From Candidatus Latescibacterota bacterium (GTDB taxonomy: Bacteria; Latescibacterota; UBA2968; UBA8231): 64,000 nt of DNA. The stretch is taken from the NCBI GenBank assembly GCA_965243025.1, contig CBDETY010000003.1, positions 5,920,001 through 5,984,000 on the forward strand, given 5' to 3'. The notes under the pieces were generated by a model. That model made no database searches. It saw only the letters and a program-made list of their open reading frames with translations, and was not told the DNA's origin. This document shows positions 52,502 through 63,615 of the stretch, piece after piece. The translations under genes and the position numbers were made by a program. Within the stretch, counting starts at the first letter, position 1. The number at the start of each line of letters is the position of its first letter.

Positions 52502-53413
52502 CTACTCCGACAGGCTGGCCTTGATGCGGGCCCAGGTGATGCTTTCGACCGCGGTGCCGTCGGTACCACTATCTGCGCCCAGAAGTATCCCGTGTGCCCA
52601 TCGGTCAGATGCCATATTCGAAGAATGATCCCATGTGGCATCCGGGCCCAGCATGAAGTGTAAACAGTCTACTGTTATCGGGTCCGTGTCAGCGTCCGCA
52701 AGTATCATAGCAAACTCTATCATTTTTCCAGTAAACAGTTCCGATGGGAGACTCTGCTCGGGGGAATCCCAGATCAACCTGTCAAACGCGGTTACGTAGA
52801 ACTCGATCACGTAGAAGACGGGCTGACTGTCCAGTACACCCCCGCCGCCATCGGCGTACGGTACCTGGTGCACCCAGGGTGAATCGGTACTCACCCATTC
52901 CAGGAAGACGTTGCTGCCGTATTCATGGTTTTCTGCAATTCCCCAATACTCTTGCGCCTGGCCCATCGTGACATCCCGAATAACCACACGATCTTCCCTT
53001 TCGACTACCGTCCCACCGCTTCGGTCGCCGTCAACCAAAAAATGAACGGTTGCCTCGAAAGGGAACAAAGGAGCCCGACCAAGCCACTCACCTACATAGA
53101 TATCGTCCACGATTTCAGCCGCCACGAACAGGTGATTGCCGGCATCGTGCCAAGCTAGCCAGATGCGAAAGTCGAACGACGACGGGTCGTACTCCGAGGG
53201 AAACCCCGGATGAGTGGCAAAATCCAGCGGCGTCAAGGTCGGTTCGCCGAGTACCTCCGACCAGTCTTCCACCGAACCGTCCCGGAGGTCGATGCGCGCC
53301 CGCATCTCGTCGGTCAACTCCCTGATGGGATAGAGGCGGTCGGACCACTGGGCGTCGAGAGCAATCGTCGGGAGCAGGATGAATAAAGCGTTTCGGAACG
53401 AAAGGAATTGCAT
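52502..53413 (-). CDS. Secreted CBM9/DOMON-like protein with C-terminal TWARIKA motif (paralog A)
   Basis: Signal peptide, DR.YPI.E...IDL.DGS..DW, DFRIW.AW, VDGDRSGG, PYADGGG, EFYVT.FD, ending TAVESITWARIKASLSE. Confidence 0.75.
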   Translation of the reverse strand: MQFLSFRNALFILLPTIALDAQWSDRLYPIRELTDEMRARIDLRDGSVEDWSEVLGEPTLTPLDFATHPGFPSEYDPSSFDFRIWLAWHDAGNHLFVAAEIVDDIYVGEWLGRAPLFPFEATVHFLVDGDRSGGTVVEREDRVVIRDVTMGQAQEYWGIAENHEYGSNVFLEWVSTDSPWVHQVPYADGGGGVLDSQPVFYVIEFYVTAFDRLIWDSPEQSLPSELFTGKMIEFAMILADADTDPITVDCLHFMLGPDATWDHSSNMASDRWAHGILLGADSGTDGTAVESITWARIKASLSE

Positions 53414-53600
53414 TTGAAATCCTTCTTTGATCTGTACCTTGTGTTGAAGCAGCGGGGCAAAAAGGAATGAAAAAGAACCTCGGCCACACTCCAGAAGTAC
53501 TGCATGATCTGAGAATGGCAGAGGTCAAGTTACGACGATGCTGTCGACTTTGACGCTAATCGGGACCTATCGCCGGAGTCAGTAGCATTGGCAATACGAG

Positions 53601-53660
53601 CCGCTCCCCGATGATAGCCAGGGGCAAGAGAGCATGAGAAGATGATCCTTCATTTTTCAT
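53601..53660 (-). pseudogene. Truncated remnant of a Cys-rich peptide precursor gene
   Basis: 53600-53760 aligns by eye with 55900-56070 (PLAIIGERL vs PLGIIGERL, same RBS region). Frameshifted and lacks the core. Confidence 0.7.
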
Positions 53661-53787
53661 CCCTTTCCATTTTGGATGAGGTAAGTTATGGAAAGCAGGC
53701 AACCCAACCCGGCTGCTCCTACTTCCCTGGAAACTTCGCGCGAACGCTACCCTGCGTCCGACCTGCTTCACCTCCTTTCTCATGTTG

Positions 53788-53906
53788 TCAGCCCCCTCTC
53801 AGCCATATACCCAGGTCGATTCCGGGGGGGCACCAGGTTGCCCGCGAACACCGCGGTCAGCAGGGCCCCGGCAGCGATGAGCGGCGCCAAGGGCAAAGCC
53901 TGTTTC
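53788..53906 (-). pseudogene. 3' remnant of an A24 peptidase gene
   Basis: Encodes KQALPLAPLIAAGALLTAVFAGNLVPP, matching the C-termini of the two A24 genes. Confidence 0.75.
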
Positions 53907-53951
53907 TTCTTGTTCGCTTGCCGGGGCTTTCAACCAGTTGCGGATTGGCCT

Positions 53952-54476
53952 TCAGCGTCCTTGTTCGCCCGTTCGTTTGAAGTGATCCGTCACATCGAGC
54001 TCGATTTCTGCTTCGGGAAAGCGGGTGTGCGAAGCCACCTGTAGCAGATCCCTTCCGATCAACCGAACCCGCTGTGAGGACGTCGAGGGTTTGAATTCCC
54101 ACTCGAGGGACAGTTCAGGTGCCCCTTGATTGGACCCACCGACTGTATCGGGGACCGTATTGTCTCCCCAGAAGCAATCCACTGGATCACAGGACCCCCA
54201 CATGCGGACGAGGAATTGGCCGGTAGAATCGGGCTTGAGTATTAAGACCCGCGTGACGTGGTCGGCTTCCGTATCTACGTTTTCCCAGGTGCCTATGAGG
54301 TCCGCTAATTGAAGCGATGACTCGGGTAAAGCCTTGGGAACCGGTGCATCATTGACGGGGTTCTCTGATTCCGGCGGACTGGAACAGGAAATCGCCACCA
54401 GGGTTGCAGCAATCCAGATCCGATGCCGCGCCGTATATACCCGAGGGGAAAATGGGGATTGGCTGTGAACGTTCAC
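53952..54476 (-). CDS. Putative lipoprotein with WGSCxPxDCxWG motif
   Basis: Lipobox LVAISC, then GTWENVD....TRV.I...VRMWGSCDPVDCFWG. Confidence 0.65.
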   Translation of the reverse strand: MNVHSQSPFSPRVYTARHRIWIAATLVAISCSSPPESENPVNDAPVPKALPESSLQLADLIGTWENVDTEADHVTRVLILKPDSTGQFLVRMWGSCDPVDCFWGDNTVPDTVGGSNQGAPELSLEWEFKPSTSSQRVRLIGRDLLQVASHTRFPEAEIELDVTDHFKRTGEQGR

Positions 54477-54496
54477 TGTGACCGGTTTCGAAAAAA

Positions 54497-61697: not shown

Positions 61698-62033
61698 TTA
61701 ATAATCCCAGCAATGACATTCGTCATTTTGGACATGGCACCAATATCCGCCTGTGCAGCTTTCTGAGGCACAAAACGATGCGCACTGCCAATCTGCGTTA
61801 CAGCTTCCTCCCTGTACACTGCAGGCTTCGGCTCTAGCGGTGTCCGGGGCCCCAAACACCACCGCCGCGGCGATCAGCAACCCCCCGGTCCACGCGACCG
61901 GAAACCCCTGTTTCGAGCTGACTTCGCCGGATTCGCTCCGGACGAACTCCGCGATGAACCCGCTCCCAAGGGCGGGCCCGGCGGCCTCAACGAGGCCTTT
62001 TGCGACCGTCAGGGCCGCATTCAAGATATGCAT
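61698..62033 (-). CDS. Cys-rich (8 Cys) defensin-like peptide precursor P2
   Basis: GAGGA RBS. Leader GFIAEFVRSESGEV...QGFPVAWTGGLLIAAAVVFGAPDTARA, then core EACSVQGGSCNADWQCASFCASESCTGGYWCHVQNDECHCWDY. Confidence 0.85.
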   Translation of the reverse strand: MHILNAALTVAKGLVEAAGPALGSGFIAEFVRSESGEVSSKQGFPVAWTGGLLIAAAVVFGAPDTARAEACSVQGGSCNADWQCASFCASESCTGGYWCHVQNDECHCWDY

Positions 62034-62142
62034 TTTTCATCCTCATCGGATAAAGGTTATACAACGATTCCTCCGCTTCCCAACCCTTGAAACTTCGCGC
62101 AGCCACCTGCGCGTCGATTGCGGCCTCACCTCCTTCCTTCGG

Positions 62143-63216
62143 TTACCCCCCTCTCAGCCATTTGCCGAGGTCAGTCAGGGGCGGGGCCAGGTTGCCCGCG
62201 AACACCGTGGTCAGCAGCGCCCCGGCGACGATGAAGGGGACGAACGGGAACCCCTGTTCCCGCGCGATGGAACTTTCATCCGGCAACTCCTGATTTCCCT
62301 GCCGGCGAAGGGCGTGCGCCTGCTTCTTCGACAGCGGCTGGTCCGCCTCGCAGACCACCGTTCCGTCCGCAGTCTCCAGCTCCAGGCGGTGCCGGGGCAC
62401 GTCTCCTGCCCGCACTTCTTCGGCCGCAACCGTGCGCACCAGGGCGCGGCCGTACTGGAAGCGCACCTGCAGGTACACCACTTCGAGCAACCAGACGACC
62501 CCCAGCATCAGCACACAGGTCTGCCAGGCCCCGGTGGTATGGGACAGGTAGAGCAGGGCGGCGATCCCCGGCAGCAGGATCACGTTCCAGTACTTCTCCT
62601 CGATTCCCCGGTCGAGCAGGCGGTAGCCGACGACGAGGGCGGCCAGCGCTTCCAGGTAGCTGAGCGGGCGCTGCAGCACCAGCCAGGCGAAGGCCAGGGC
62701 GAGGCCCAGCAGTCCGGCCAGGCCCCAGGCCGCCCGCAACCACTGTCTTCCCCCGGGGCGCACCGCCTGCGATTGGCCCTCTTCCTCGGGCTCCCGGCGC
62801 CACAGCGGCACCAGCAGCAGCACGAGCAGGTAGCAGATCAGACTGTTCAGGATCAGGGCGAACGGGGCGGCCTGCATGGCCAACGGTTCGGGTGACGGGC
62901 ACAGGCTCGGGGGCAGGGCAGCGACCGCGGCCCAGAACAGCTTGGCGTCTCCCGGAGCCCAGAACCCGAACAGGGTCAGCCCGACGGCCACCGCCAGGCC
63001 GATCCCCAGCAGGGAGGCGACGCGGCCGAAGGTAGTCACGTCGAGGGCCACCATCGCCGCCTGCCCGATCAGCCCGATCCCGAGCAGGGCCAGGGTGTAA
63101 CGGTTGGGCACCCGCCTCGCCTTCAGGTCGGTGTAGCCGGTGTAGAACCCCACCGCCAGCAGGCTGGCGAGCATGGCAGTCTCCACGAGAAAGACCGGGT
63201 CGGTGAACAGGTTCAT
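62143..63216 (-). CDS. A24 family (FlaK/PibD-like) prepilin peptidase, intact
   Basis: YTDLK...VPN, APGDAKL, many TM segments, soluble insert EVRAGDVP...LSKKQA..L, C-terminal FPFVPFIVAG. Confidence 0.85.
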   Translation of the reverse strand: MNLFTDPVFLVETAMLASLLAVGFYTGYTDLKARRVPNRYTLALLGIGLIGQAAMVALDVTTFGRVASLLGIGLAVAVGLTLFGFWAPGDAKLFWAAVAALPPSLCPSPEPLAMQAAPFALILNSLICYLLVLLLVPLWRREPEEEGQSQAVRPGGRQWLRAAWGLAGLLGLALAFAWLVLQRPLSYLEALAALVVGYRLLDRGIEEKYWNVILLPGIAALLYLSHTTGAWQTCVLMLGVVWLLEVVYLQVRFQYGRALVRTVAAEEVRAGDVPRHRLELETADGTVVCEADQPLSKKQAHALRRQGNQELPDESSIAREQGFPFVPFIVAGALLTTVFAGNLAPPLTDLGKWLRGG

Positions 63217-63355
63217 TGGCTTCCCTTCCGCCGGAGGGCGATGGCGGCCAGGATCCGTACTGCCGGTCTGGGGGTAGTCACACTTGCTGATTCCGCGGTA
63301 AAGTCTGTCGCGACGGCTGAAACTCACGAATACTATCCCTGACATTTACTTTTAC

Positions 63356-63371
63356 TGCACAATTCGTGCCA
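63356..63371 (-). promoter_or_regulatory. sigma54 promoter, copy 2
   Basis: Minus strand TGGCACGAATTGTGCA, with a consensus -24 box TGGCACG. Confidence 0.8.
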
Positions 63372-63524
63372 GGTCTGGAAAAAACCGGCTTAACTCCGGT
63401 CCAGATAAGGAGTTAAGGCATTTGTTAAAGGATCGAGAGAGGAGGGAGAACTGTCGCAAAAAACAGAAACCTCACCGTGGAAAAATGCGATATCAGTGTG
63501 TTTATGATGGAGTTATGAAAAAAA

Positions 63525-63556
63525 TCGCATTTTGCGACGCGATTCGCATTTTGCGA
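63525..63556. promoter_or_regulatory. Tandem palindromic UAS sites, copy 2
   Basis: TCGCATTTTGCGA at 63525 and 63544. Confidence 0.7.
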
Positions 63557-63615
63557 CGCGCACAGGGATGGGTTTCCCGGTGCGTTTCCAACCATTCTGC
63601 AACCAGAGGCCATCC

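Follow-up and report, generated by a model that had tools for sequence, protein, structure and literature searches.

A 64,000-nucleotide stretch of a Candidatus Latescibacterota bacterium genome (hereafter the window) carries on its minus strand, at positions 52502-63558, a gene cassette organized as two sigma54-type promoter modules, A and then B in transcription order. The cassette combines a variant of the A24 family of prepilin peptidases, an FMN_bind-like protein (FMNb), two redoxins (Rdx1 and Rdx2), two small precursors (P1 and P2) with a shared leader, and secreted proteins ending in a TWGRIKA-type motif (TWG proteins). On balance, we consider it probable that the cassette is self-contained and serves to make and mature small, secreted peptides rich in disulfides, whose cores vary greatly and are in part defensin-like. 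We also propose, tentatively and with some doubt, that an A24 enzyme acting independently of any pilus, and equipped with its own cytoplasmic recognition domain, licenses the export of a large, diversifying peptide family by trimming a signal made of an S-E-S-G box and an R-x-G-L site, in combination with a flavin-based disulfide generator in which a covalently flavinylated FMN_bind protein bearing a CxxC would take the place of DsbB or VKOR. The enzyme families present here have not been seen before in a dedicated peptide maturation cluster, and our literature searches returned no report joining a prepilin peptidase with cysteine-rich or defensin-like peptides, although one may still exist.

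The source genome (G000; 6.8 Mb, three contigs, completeness 96%) is made up for the most part of the 6.78-Mb contig C3, and the window corresponds to G000:C3:5920001-5984000; coordinates below are window positions unless prefixed. An original prediction, made by a model from the sequence of this stretch, had read the cassette as a pathway built around a repurposed prepilin peptidase. That reading is supported by the analyses presented here in amended form: a second cut is likely at a conserved A-x-A, the core types are variable, and the TWG proteins are not cassette-specific. The cassette showed no modifying enzyme besides the protease and the oxidoreductases, and describing it as similar to pathways for ribosomally made peptides with post-translational modifications (RiPPs) refers to its logic, not to membership in that class.

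A conserved leader precedes variable cysteine-rich cores

A word-based protein search identified 26 relatives of the precursors, all from metagenomes, with cores differing in length and cysteine spacing. We searched a leader alignment of 45 columns, covering 15 loci from seven genomes, against 1.84 billion representative proteins. This profile matched 143 clusters of small proteins at E ≤ 0.001 (36 at E ≤ 1e-10), indicating that the word-based search had understated the family. Almost all of these leader proteins (142 of 143) are 46-174 residues long, the remaining one having 201 residues.

The leader follows the pattern F-x-x-S-E-S-G ... R-x-G-L/F ... W, continuing through a hydrophobic stretch to A-x-A. 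Over the 143 sequences, its column counts include F at column 3 (119), S at columns 6 (101) and 8 (100), G at column 9 (135), R at column 14 (69), G at column 16 (102, with S in 18 and A in 11), L or F at column 17 (105 and 27), W at column 21 (123), G at column 34 (106), A at columns 39 (113) and 41 (131), and C at column 44 (103). Columns 18-33 of the profile are hydrophobic, and the segment spans about 18 residues. The strongly conserved A-x-A beyond it, which comes after Pro or Ala in 112 of 143 leaders, was absent from the original description. Judged by sequence pattern, the leader bears two protease-type marks, a class III-like R-x-G before L or F and a signal peptidase I-like A-x-A. 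Across the 143-sequence profile, the former presents the basic residue, the G, S or A, and the subsequent L or F and hydrophobic helix of a class III signal.

Six or more cysteines follow the hydrophobic stretch in 118 of the 143 proteins, and exactly eight in 65. The conserved leader originally described is shared by P1, P2 and the 143 clusters, whereas the eight-cysteine core described with it proved to be the commonest type but not the sole one, with cores of 6, 8, 10 and 12 cysteines all represented. Precursors occur in tandem, in up to three copies.

When the precursor alignment was run against 185,579 species genomes, a single match emerged (locus L013), a sensor kinase with a leader-like membrane helix that we rejected as a false positive; because its patterns were specific to close relatives, the scan says little about the range of the family. 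Longer leader-bearing proteins were also observed in relatives (L081 19299-19901, L087 1421-3250, L088 11197-13141 and P0202). They end in a domain of about 90 residues containing ...NPFNP... and ...GVYIYKVE..., which we take to resemble type IX secretion signals.

Possible defensin likeness of the P1 and P2 cores

Both precursors of the window present the CxxxC/CxC pattern of cis-defensins, as C-ASF-C and C-H-C in P2 and as C-EGY-C and C-H-C in P1. The pattern is missing from other cores of the family, such as those of three tandem genes in a related genome, G060. Residues 70-111 of P2 were modelled as strand-helix-strand-strand with a pLDDT of about 88 (from a 23-row alignment), the leader being modelled poorly. 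The top eight Foldseek matches of this core in the PDB were eight-cysteine plant defensins, with the whole targets covered (TM 0.63-0.66, rmsd 2.2-2.9, non-significant E-values of 0.5-2.2). As modelled, the P2 core looks like a plant-type defensin.

A set of 74 bacterial cis-defensins was reported in 2024 from Proteobacteria, Acidobacteria and Actinobacteria, in five classes of which class V is plant-like (PMC11561630). P1 and P2 resemble these and the eight-cysteine plant defensins in having eight cysteines with CxxxC and CxC, and the model of P2 has a third strand as in class V and in plant defensins. The main text of that report does not use the terms "peptidase", "thioredoxin" or "gene cluster", and its 74 sequences may include this lineage. 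The cassette also differs in that a single leader serves many core types, among which the defensin-like core is just one.

The leader is linked to an A24 peptidase variant

The original prediction had placed an A24 peptidase at 62143-63216, and this gene indeed scores 37.2 bits against PF01478 (cut-off 26.5), with 41.3 bits for the second copy in the window. The two are among four A24 genes above this cut-off in the whole genome. Catalysis by A24 enzymes depends on a pair of aspartates, of which the second lies in a G-x-G-D-like motif. In the variant, D30 and D90 (W-A-P-G-D-A-K) are unchanged in all 30 aligned sequences, at identities down to 33%, and with both catalytic aspartates invariant the enzyme looks active. 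About 200 residues are added to the A24 core, forming extra membrane helices and a small beta domain. The structure model (pLDDT 77.5) comprises some ten helices, a beta-rich insert at residues 261-319 and a last helix after a conserved P-F-x-P-F. The sole related fold match was the archaeal GxGD protease FlaK (3s0x_B; rank 23, probability 0.69, TM 0.49 over 137 columns, E 2.4). A sequence search of the PDB with the peptidase gave no match, and NCBIfam assigned neither the peptidase nor the precursors, FMNb or the TWG proteins to a family. Complex prediction for the variant with precursor residues 1-72 scored 0.18 against a mark of 0.32, which speaks neither for nor against their interaction.

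A collection of 5.8 billion clusters contained 68 relatives of the peptidase at E ≤ 1e-5. A few of these were named prepilin peptidase or CpaA at source and come from metagenome-assembled genomes labelled "Gemmatimonadetes/Gemmatimonadota bacterium"; one relative of FMNb is labelled "Candidatus Latescibacteria", showing that source labels for the lineage differ.

Of the phylum's 168 genomes, 32 contain the variant and 37 the leader, and no genome carries the variant without the leader. The original prediction had proposed co-occurrence of the leader with A24, redoxin and FMN_bind genes as its check, and all 32 variant genomes carry the leader. For 20 further genomes we also retrieved the 10-20 kb surrounding the variant and searched these stretches with cassette queries only. 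A leader-bearing cysteine-rich open reading frame (ORF) was found near the variant in 19 of the 20 loci (all but L089), an Rdx1-type gene in 20, an Rdx2-type gene in 15 and FMNb in 13. In a set of 61 related genomes, the precursor model matched seven, and the variant matched the same seven plus two genomes of another family.

The order FMNb-Rdx1-Rdx2-A24-precursor, or a permutation of it, recurs in the window, at a second G000 locus and in relatives that span several genera and three families. Each of the four A24 genes of G000 has a leader peptide nearby. The second G000 cassette (C3:2819861-2828302) reads Rdx1-Rdx2-A24-precursor-TWG, with an inserted transposase gene, and the fourth A24 gene, which is diverged (33% identity), precedes two redoxins, with a leader peptide of 10 Cys at a distance of 3.4 kb. 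The G060 locus consists of FMNb-Rdx1-Rdx2-A24, three leader peptides in tandem whose 9-Cys core is of another type, and a MacB/FtsX permease, and has no TWG gene; the permease is a possible exporter or immunity component.

Transposase genes were observed at several of these loci. In G060 (L037 7017-8969 and 11435-13762), Rdx2 is split by a 439-residue transposase gene and the MacB/FtsX-type permease lies after the precursors. Identical 450-residue transposase genes stand beside leader-peptide genes at G000:C3:2823764-2825116 and 3438147-3439517, and at the latter site the insertion element cuts the leader after the hydrophobic segment.

The peptidase appears to have no filament to serve in its own genome. 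G000 gave zero matches to PF00437 (T2SSE), PF00482 (T2SSF) and PF00263 (secretin), in searches that recovered the ATPase in 13, the platform protein in 13 and the secretin in 6 of 14 control genomes; a pilus locus elsewhere in the genome, which would have counted against the original prediction, was not found by these searches. T2SSE (PF00437, E ≤ 1e-10) is missing from 28 of the 32 variant genomes, being present in G137, G140, G156 and G158; phylum-wide, it is found in 52 of 168 genomes. No ATPase or platform gene was seen in the examined cassette loci, which were searched with cassette queries only.

Compared with the prepilin and preflagellin peptidases (PilD, TadV/CpaA, FlaK), the variant shares the family, both aspartates and a presumed site after a basic and a small residue, before L or F and a hydrophobic helix, and it may share a FlaK-like fold. 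It differs in its extra residues and in a genome lacking matches to the filament ATPase, platform and secretin. Its presumed substrates differ from class III substrates in having W instead of E at +5, an upstream S-E-S-G box and an A-x-A after the helix, and from pilin-type substrates in having as a head a cysteine-rich domain of 40-60 residues.

Redox genes of the cassette

FMNb scores 15.3 bits against Pfam FMN_bind (cut-off 22), and all eight of its aligned relatives match this family at E ≤ 1 (best E 5e-4); a PDB profile search returned nothing relevant. The motifs R-H-D-I-A-C-x-x-C and D-G-[IL]-[ST]-G-A-T are kept in eight of eight aligned relatives, and among tblastn matches over the fetched loci, some of which overlap, CxxC is present in 36 of 36 and [ST]GAT in 34 of 36. 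The sequence [S/T]GA[S/T] is reported as the target of flavinylation by ApbE (PMC8238504), and ApbE is encoded in the genome (E 2.7e-75). FMNb resembles the ApbE-flavinylated FMN_bind proteins in its motif, in the presence of ApbE, in an outward membrane anchor and in its thioredoxin-fold neighbors (PMC8238504). The hybrid clusters of thioredoxin-like and flavinylated proteins described in that source use DsbD, DUF3570 and DUF4266, whereas the cassette has a CxxC inside the FMN_bind-like protein itself, A24 and cysteine-rich peptide partners, and a Pfam score below the cut-off.

Both redoxins exceed the AhpC-TSA cut-off of 26 bits (Table 1) and have a TlpA/ResA-like thioredoxin fold; the NCBIfam equivalog models (ResA, MauD and DsbE likeness) score far below their cut-offs. 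With overlapping loci included, Rdx1 is CxAC in 44 of 52 tblastn matches, and Rdx2 is CxYC in 30 and CxYS or CxFS in 11 of 41. The CPYS redoxin of the original prediction is present in the window, but CPYS is the local form of a mostly CxYC redoxin. The likeness to TlpA, ResA and MauD extends to the AhpC-TSA/Redoxin fold, an N-terminal anchor and the CxxC of Rdx1; in contrast to those proteins, the cassette redoxins are linked to peptide precursors and not to cytochrome c or methylamine dehydrogenase genes, and Rdx2 has CPYS.

The genome harbors one DSBA-family gene, one DsbD/CcdA-type gene and three signal peptidase I genes. A genome search found no match for DsbB or VKOR, so that the usual re-oxidant for envelope disulfide formation was not found in G000. 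From these sequence features, FMNb may be the oxidant of a private folding line, replacing DsbB/VKOR.

Gene layout and candidate regulation

All the elements of the cassette listed by the original prediction were located at or near their described places on the minus strand (Table 1), including overlapping start and stop codons at FMNb/Rdx1, Rdx1/Rdx2 and Rdx2/A24. The parts said to recur do so as two A24 copies, two eight-cysteine precursors with two leader remnants, and four TWG proteins. Module A consists of two palindromes, the promoter, the intact A24 gene, P2, TWG-A and, joined to a second TWG gene, a leader remnant. Module B runs from palindromes and promoter through FMNb, the two redoxins, the frameshifted A24, P1, a TWG gene and the gene for a 174-residue protein to remnants and a fourth TWG gene. 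The duplications within the window are recent, with 300-nt stretches 81-96% alike. The 174-residue protein, which has a signal peptide or lipoprotein-like start, is also encoded at three further loci with the cassette (L026, L027 and G000:C3:2821397-2821918).

Table 1. Features of the cassette and its candidate regulators, in order along the minus strand (window positions)
Feature	Position	Strand	Evidence or remark
Palindrome pair TCGCAAAATGCGA (63525-63537, 63544-63556)	63525..63556	-	Exact search; candidate enhancer-binding-protein site for promoter A
Sigma54-type -24/-12 promoter A, TGGCACGAATTGTGCA	63356..63371	-	Pattern match
Intact A24-family peptidase variant, 357 aa	62143..63216	-	Pfam PF01478 over cut-off
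Precursor P2, 111 aa: leader, hydrophobic segment, A-x-A, 8-Cys core with CxxxC and CxC	61698..62033	-	
TWG protein A (TWG-A), signal peptide, ends TWGRIKASLSE	60617..61591	-	CBM9-like by language-model features
Broken leader remnant, deletion from hydrophobic segment directly to next TWG gene start	60301..60460 (approx.)	-	
TWG protein B	59317..60288	-	93% identity to TWG-A
Palindrome pair, same 13-bp sequence, upstream of promoter B	59117..59148	-	Exact search
Sigma54-type promoter B, TGGCATGAATTGTGCA	58950..58965	-	Pattern match
FMNb, membrane-anchored FMN_bind-like protein, CGTC and flavinylation-type DGISGAT	58270..58872	-	Pfam FMN_bind below cut-off
Redoxin 1 (Rdx1), CGAC, TlpA/ResA-like, N-terminal anchor	57735..58277	-	Pfam AhpC-TSA 42.5 bits
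Redoxin 2 (Rdx2), CPYS	57139..57738	-	Pfam AhpC-TSA 36.1 bits
A24 variant copy 1, two frameshifts at C-runs, probably a pseudogene	56103..57142 (ORF 56276-57142)	-	
Precursor P1: leader as P2, different 8-Cys core	55604..55960	-	
TWG protein C	54497..55432	-	
174-aa secreted or lipoprotein-like protein	53952..54476	-	No family match
Remnants: A24 C-terminal end (53791-53923); degenerate leader start (~53556-53660)	53556..53923	-	
TWG protein D, ends TWARIKASLSE	52502..53413	-	
Response regulator (51901-52392); PAS histidine kinase (50513-51583); receiver-PAS-AAA+-HTH sigma54 activator (48591-50456)	48591..52392	-	Pfam; candidate regulators

The sigma54 promoter claimed for the cassette was confirmed as a pattern: TGGCAY-N5-KTGCW matches twice in the window, against 0.10 matches expected by chance and with none of 100 shuffles reaching two, and rpoN (sigma54) is present in the genome. 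Both promoters lie downstream of two copies of the TCGCAAAATGCGA palindrome, and four of its five copies in contig C3 fall in the window. These palindromes are candidate activator-binding sites, and the neighboring two-component system and enhancer-binding protein would probably switch on both promoters.

An RNA library labelled as a sponge metatranscriptome contains short contigs 90-95% alike to pieces of the cassette within 57423-63099, partly covering Rdx2, FMNb/Rdx1, promoter B, a TWG gene, P2 and the intact A24. Since these contigs come from a relative and the library may contain DNA, they are not evidence for transcription of this locus, and cassette parts that they leave uncovered carry no information either way; a relative of the source organism may live in a sponge-type habitat and express the cassette.

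Proposed maturation pathway and alternative explanations

Taken together, these features suggest the following order of events. Transcription would start at the sigma54 promoters, with the adjacent two-component system and enhancer-binding protein as the switch. The precursor would insert in the inner membrane by its hydrophobic segment, leaving F-x-x-S-E-S-G...R-x-G in the cytoplasm and the cysteine-rich core outside, and the A24 variant would cut on the cytoplasmic side, between the conserved G (or S/A) and the L or F that follows, in the way prepilin peptidases cleave class III signal peptides. Signal peptidase I would then probably cut at A-x-A and free the core. The three anchored redox proteins may form and shuffle 3 to 6 disulfides, with FMNb, through its CxxC and flavinylation motif, as the electron sink in place of DsbB/VKOR, and with Rdx1 (CxAC) and Rdx2 (CxYC/S) as putative oxidant and isomerase. 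We speculate that the released peptides act outside the cell, most likely as an antimicrobial or antifungal competition factor.

If this proposal is correct, prepilin-type peptidases, studied almost only with type IV filaments, can serve as leader peptidases for secreted peptides, and bacteria without a DsbB/VKOR match would have a possible flavin-dependent route to envelope disulfides. The leader would also be a search tool, marking 143 clusters of unexplored disulfide-rich peptides, among them predicted plant-defensin-like folds from an uncultured bacterial lineage, and the peptides themselves would be a possible source of stable antimicrobial scaffolds.

Several observations weigh against the proposed pathway. 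What the computations establish are the genes with their families and invariant residues, the leader family, its close linkage to the variant and the lack of filament-gene matches; every step of the pathway, including cleavage, disulfide formation and activity, is inferred. The A24 step is not obviously needed, because cleavage of A-x-A by signal peptidase I would by itself set the core free. On the substrate side, the Glu at +5 that accompanies N-methylation in class III signals is wanting, with W in its place (column 21, 123 of 143), and Pfam gives no N_methyl match for P1 or P2 at E ≤ 0.1. The plant-defensin fold matches have E-values of 0.5-2.2, which are not significant alone for so small a domain, and P1 matches Pfam AtDEF-like with 16.8 bits against a cut-off of 25 (E 0.008), leaving both the FMN_bind and the Pfam defensin assignments sub-threshold. 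FMNb is missing within the fetched stretch in seven of 20 loci and from the second cassette of the genome.

The A24 copy in the redox-gene module is frameshifted twice, near 56290 and near 56125, both times at C-runs; the intact copy lies 5 kb upstream of it, behind its own promoter. Contigs from three DNA runs of one study are identical to 55500-56161, spanning the second break, and these runs are possibly the source data; no piece among those listed from them spans the first frameshift. As for linkage, five genomes have the leader without the variant. Three of these are weak matches, and the other two, G041 (an orphan leader) and G039 (which keeps only FMNb and Rdx1 remnants), are strong matches in genomes 97-98% complete. 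Among the 31 other variant genomes, 27 belong to one family and 18 to one genus, and since the variant genomes are related, the counts overstate their independence.

The alternative that fares best, though we consider it unlikely, is that the precursors are ordinary Sec and signal peptidase I substrates with a conserved N-terminal extension, on whose leftover signal peptide the A24 enzyme acts later, either clearing it in the manner of a signal-peptide peptidase or releasing the F-x-x-S-E-S-G piece as a feedback signal to the neighboring sensor and activator. Beyond the hydrophobic segment, conservation is highest at the A-x-A positions (A39 in 113, A41 in 131 of 143), the genome has three signal peptidase I genes, and the genes immediately downstream encode a PAS sensor kinase and a sigma54 activator that contains PAS. 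The fold match to the GxGD protease FlaK is also in keeping with this alternative, the GxGD design being common to A24 enzymes and signal-peptide peptidases. No A24 enzyme is known, however, to act as a signal-peptide peptidase, and the conserved R-x-G-L/F occupies the position, immediately ahead of the hydrophobic stretch, at which prepilin peptidases cleave full-length substrates; the sequence does not tell which of the two cuts comes first.

We regard as quite unlikely that the A24 cut is the only one and that the product keeps its helix, remaining membrane-anchored or membrane-active with a disulfide-rich head, like a filament-less mini-pilin or a TMcin. The hydrophobic segment, at about 18 residues, is long for the h-region of a signal peptide. 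The near-invariant A-x-A after Pro or Ala (112 of 143) is nevertheless the pattern of a cleaved signal peptide, and the presumed type IX-like C-terminal domain of some relatives implies a soluble periplasmic intermediate. The precedent for this alternative is the TMcin bacteriocin pathway of Gram-positive bacteria, in which a membrane-integrated precursor is handled by a cluster-encoded intramembrane leader protease and a dedicated DsbA-like thiol-disulfide oxidoreductase (PMC13712780). By analogy, TMcin is also the closest pathway logic to that of the cassette as a whole. As described in that source, it relies on an S2P-like zinc protease (DUF3267) and one DsbA-like enzyme, and its product has a single disulfide and keeps the helix (PMC13712780), whereas the cassette has an aspartyl A24 enzyme, three redox proteins, one of them flavin-type, and a predicted 3-6 disulfides, with an A-x-A suggesting that the helix is removed.

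An envelope redox or metal-handling module, with the cysteine-rich proteins as carriers and the peptidase as a maturation accessory, would account for the three redox proteins and for the sub-threshold likeness of the redoxins to MauD, ResA and DsbE, and flavinylated and thioredoxin-like proteins are known in uncharacterized electron-transfer clusters (PMC8238504). We find it improbable, given that the cores vary in length and cysteine number behind a constant leader, which fits diversifying exported peptides and not a conserved carrier, that precursors occur in tandem, and that the P2 core is modelled with a defensin fold. Finally, subunits of an unrecognized type IV-like filament with assembly machinery undetectable by current models are very improbable: the peptidase does belong to the pilin-processing family and the leader does end in a pilin-like G followed by L or F and a hydrophobic helix, but T2SSE, T2SSF and secretin have no match in the genome, 28 of 32 variant genomes lack T2SSE, no ATPase or platform gene appeared in the cassette loci (searched with cassette queries only), Glu is absent at +5 and A-x-A is conserved after the helix.

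TWG proteins and neighboring sequence

The secreted TWGRIKA protein of the original prediction is present after the precursors, but it is not specific to the cassette. The window encodes four TW[GA]RIKASL proteins, all with ordinary signal peptides, and 85 tblastn matches in G000 reach the C-terminus, of which 70 close with [ST]W[GA]x[ILV]K followed by no more than eight residues, mostly as SWGRIKASL. Scored matches number from 28 to at least 36 in the cassette-bearing genomes G000, G001, G002 and G012, 14 in G019, six in G022, two in G031 and 1-4 in most other members of the family; G008, in which no cassette was found, has seven. TWG proteins were not found in families f2 and f4 of the class, which retain the cassette. 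We considered TWG proteins as substrates or obligate partners of the cassette and dropped this idea, on the grounds that TWG-A has no cysteine, the signal peptides are ordinary, at least 85 copies are scattered in the genome and f2 and f4 showed none. Their conserved C-terminal motif may be a sorting signal. None of the four has a Pfam match to the CBM9 profile PF06452; their language-model neighbors carry PF06452 in 13-97% of cluster members, which we treat as a lead only.

In the sequence around the cassette, the next gene past the end of the window lies on the opposite strand, and positions 17695-27288 of the plus strand form a single ORF of 3197 residues.

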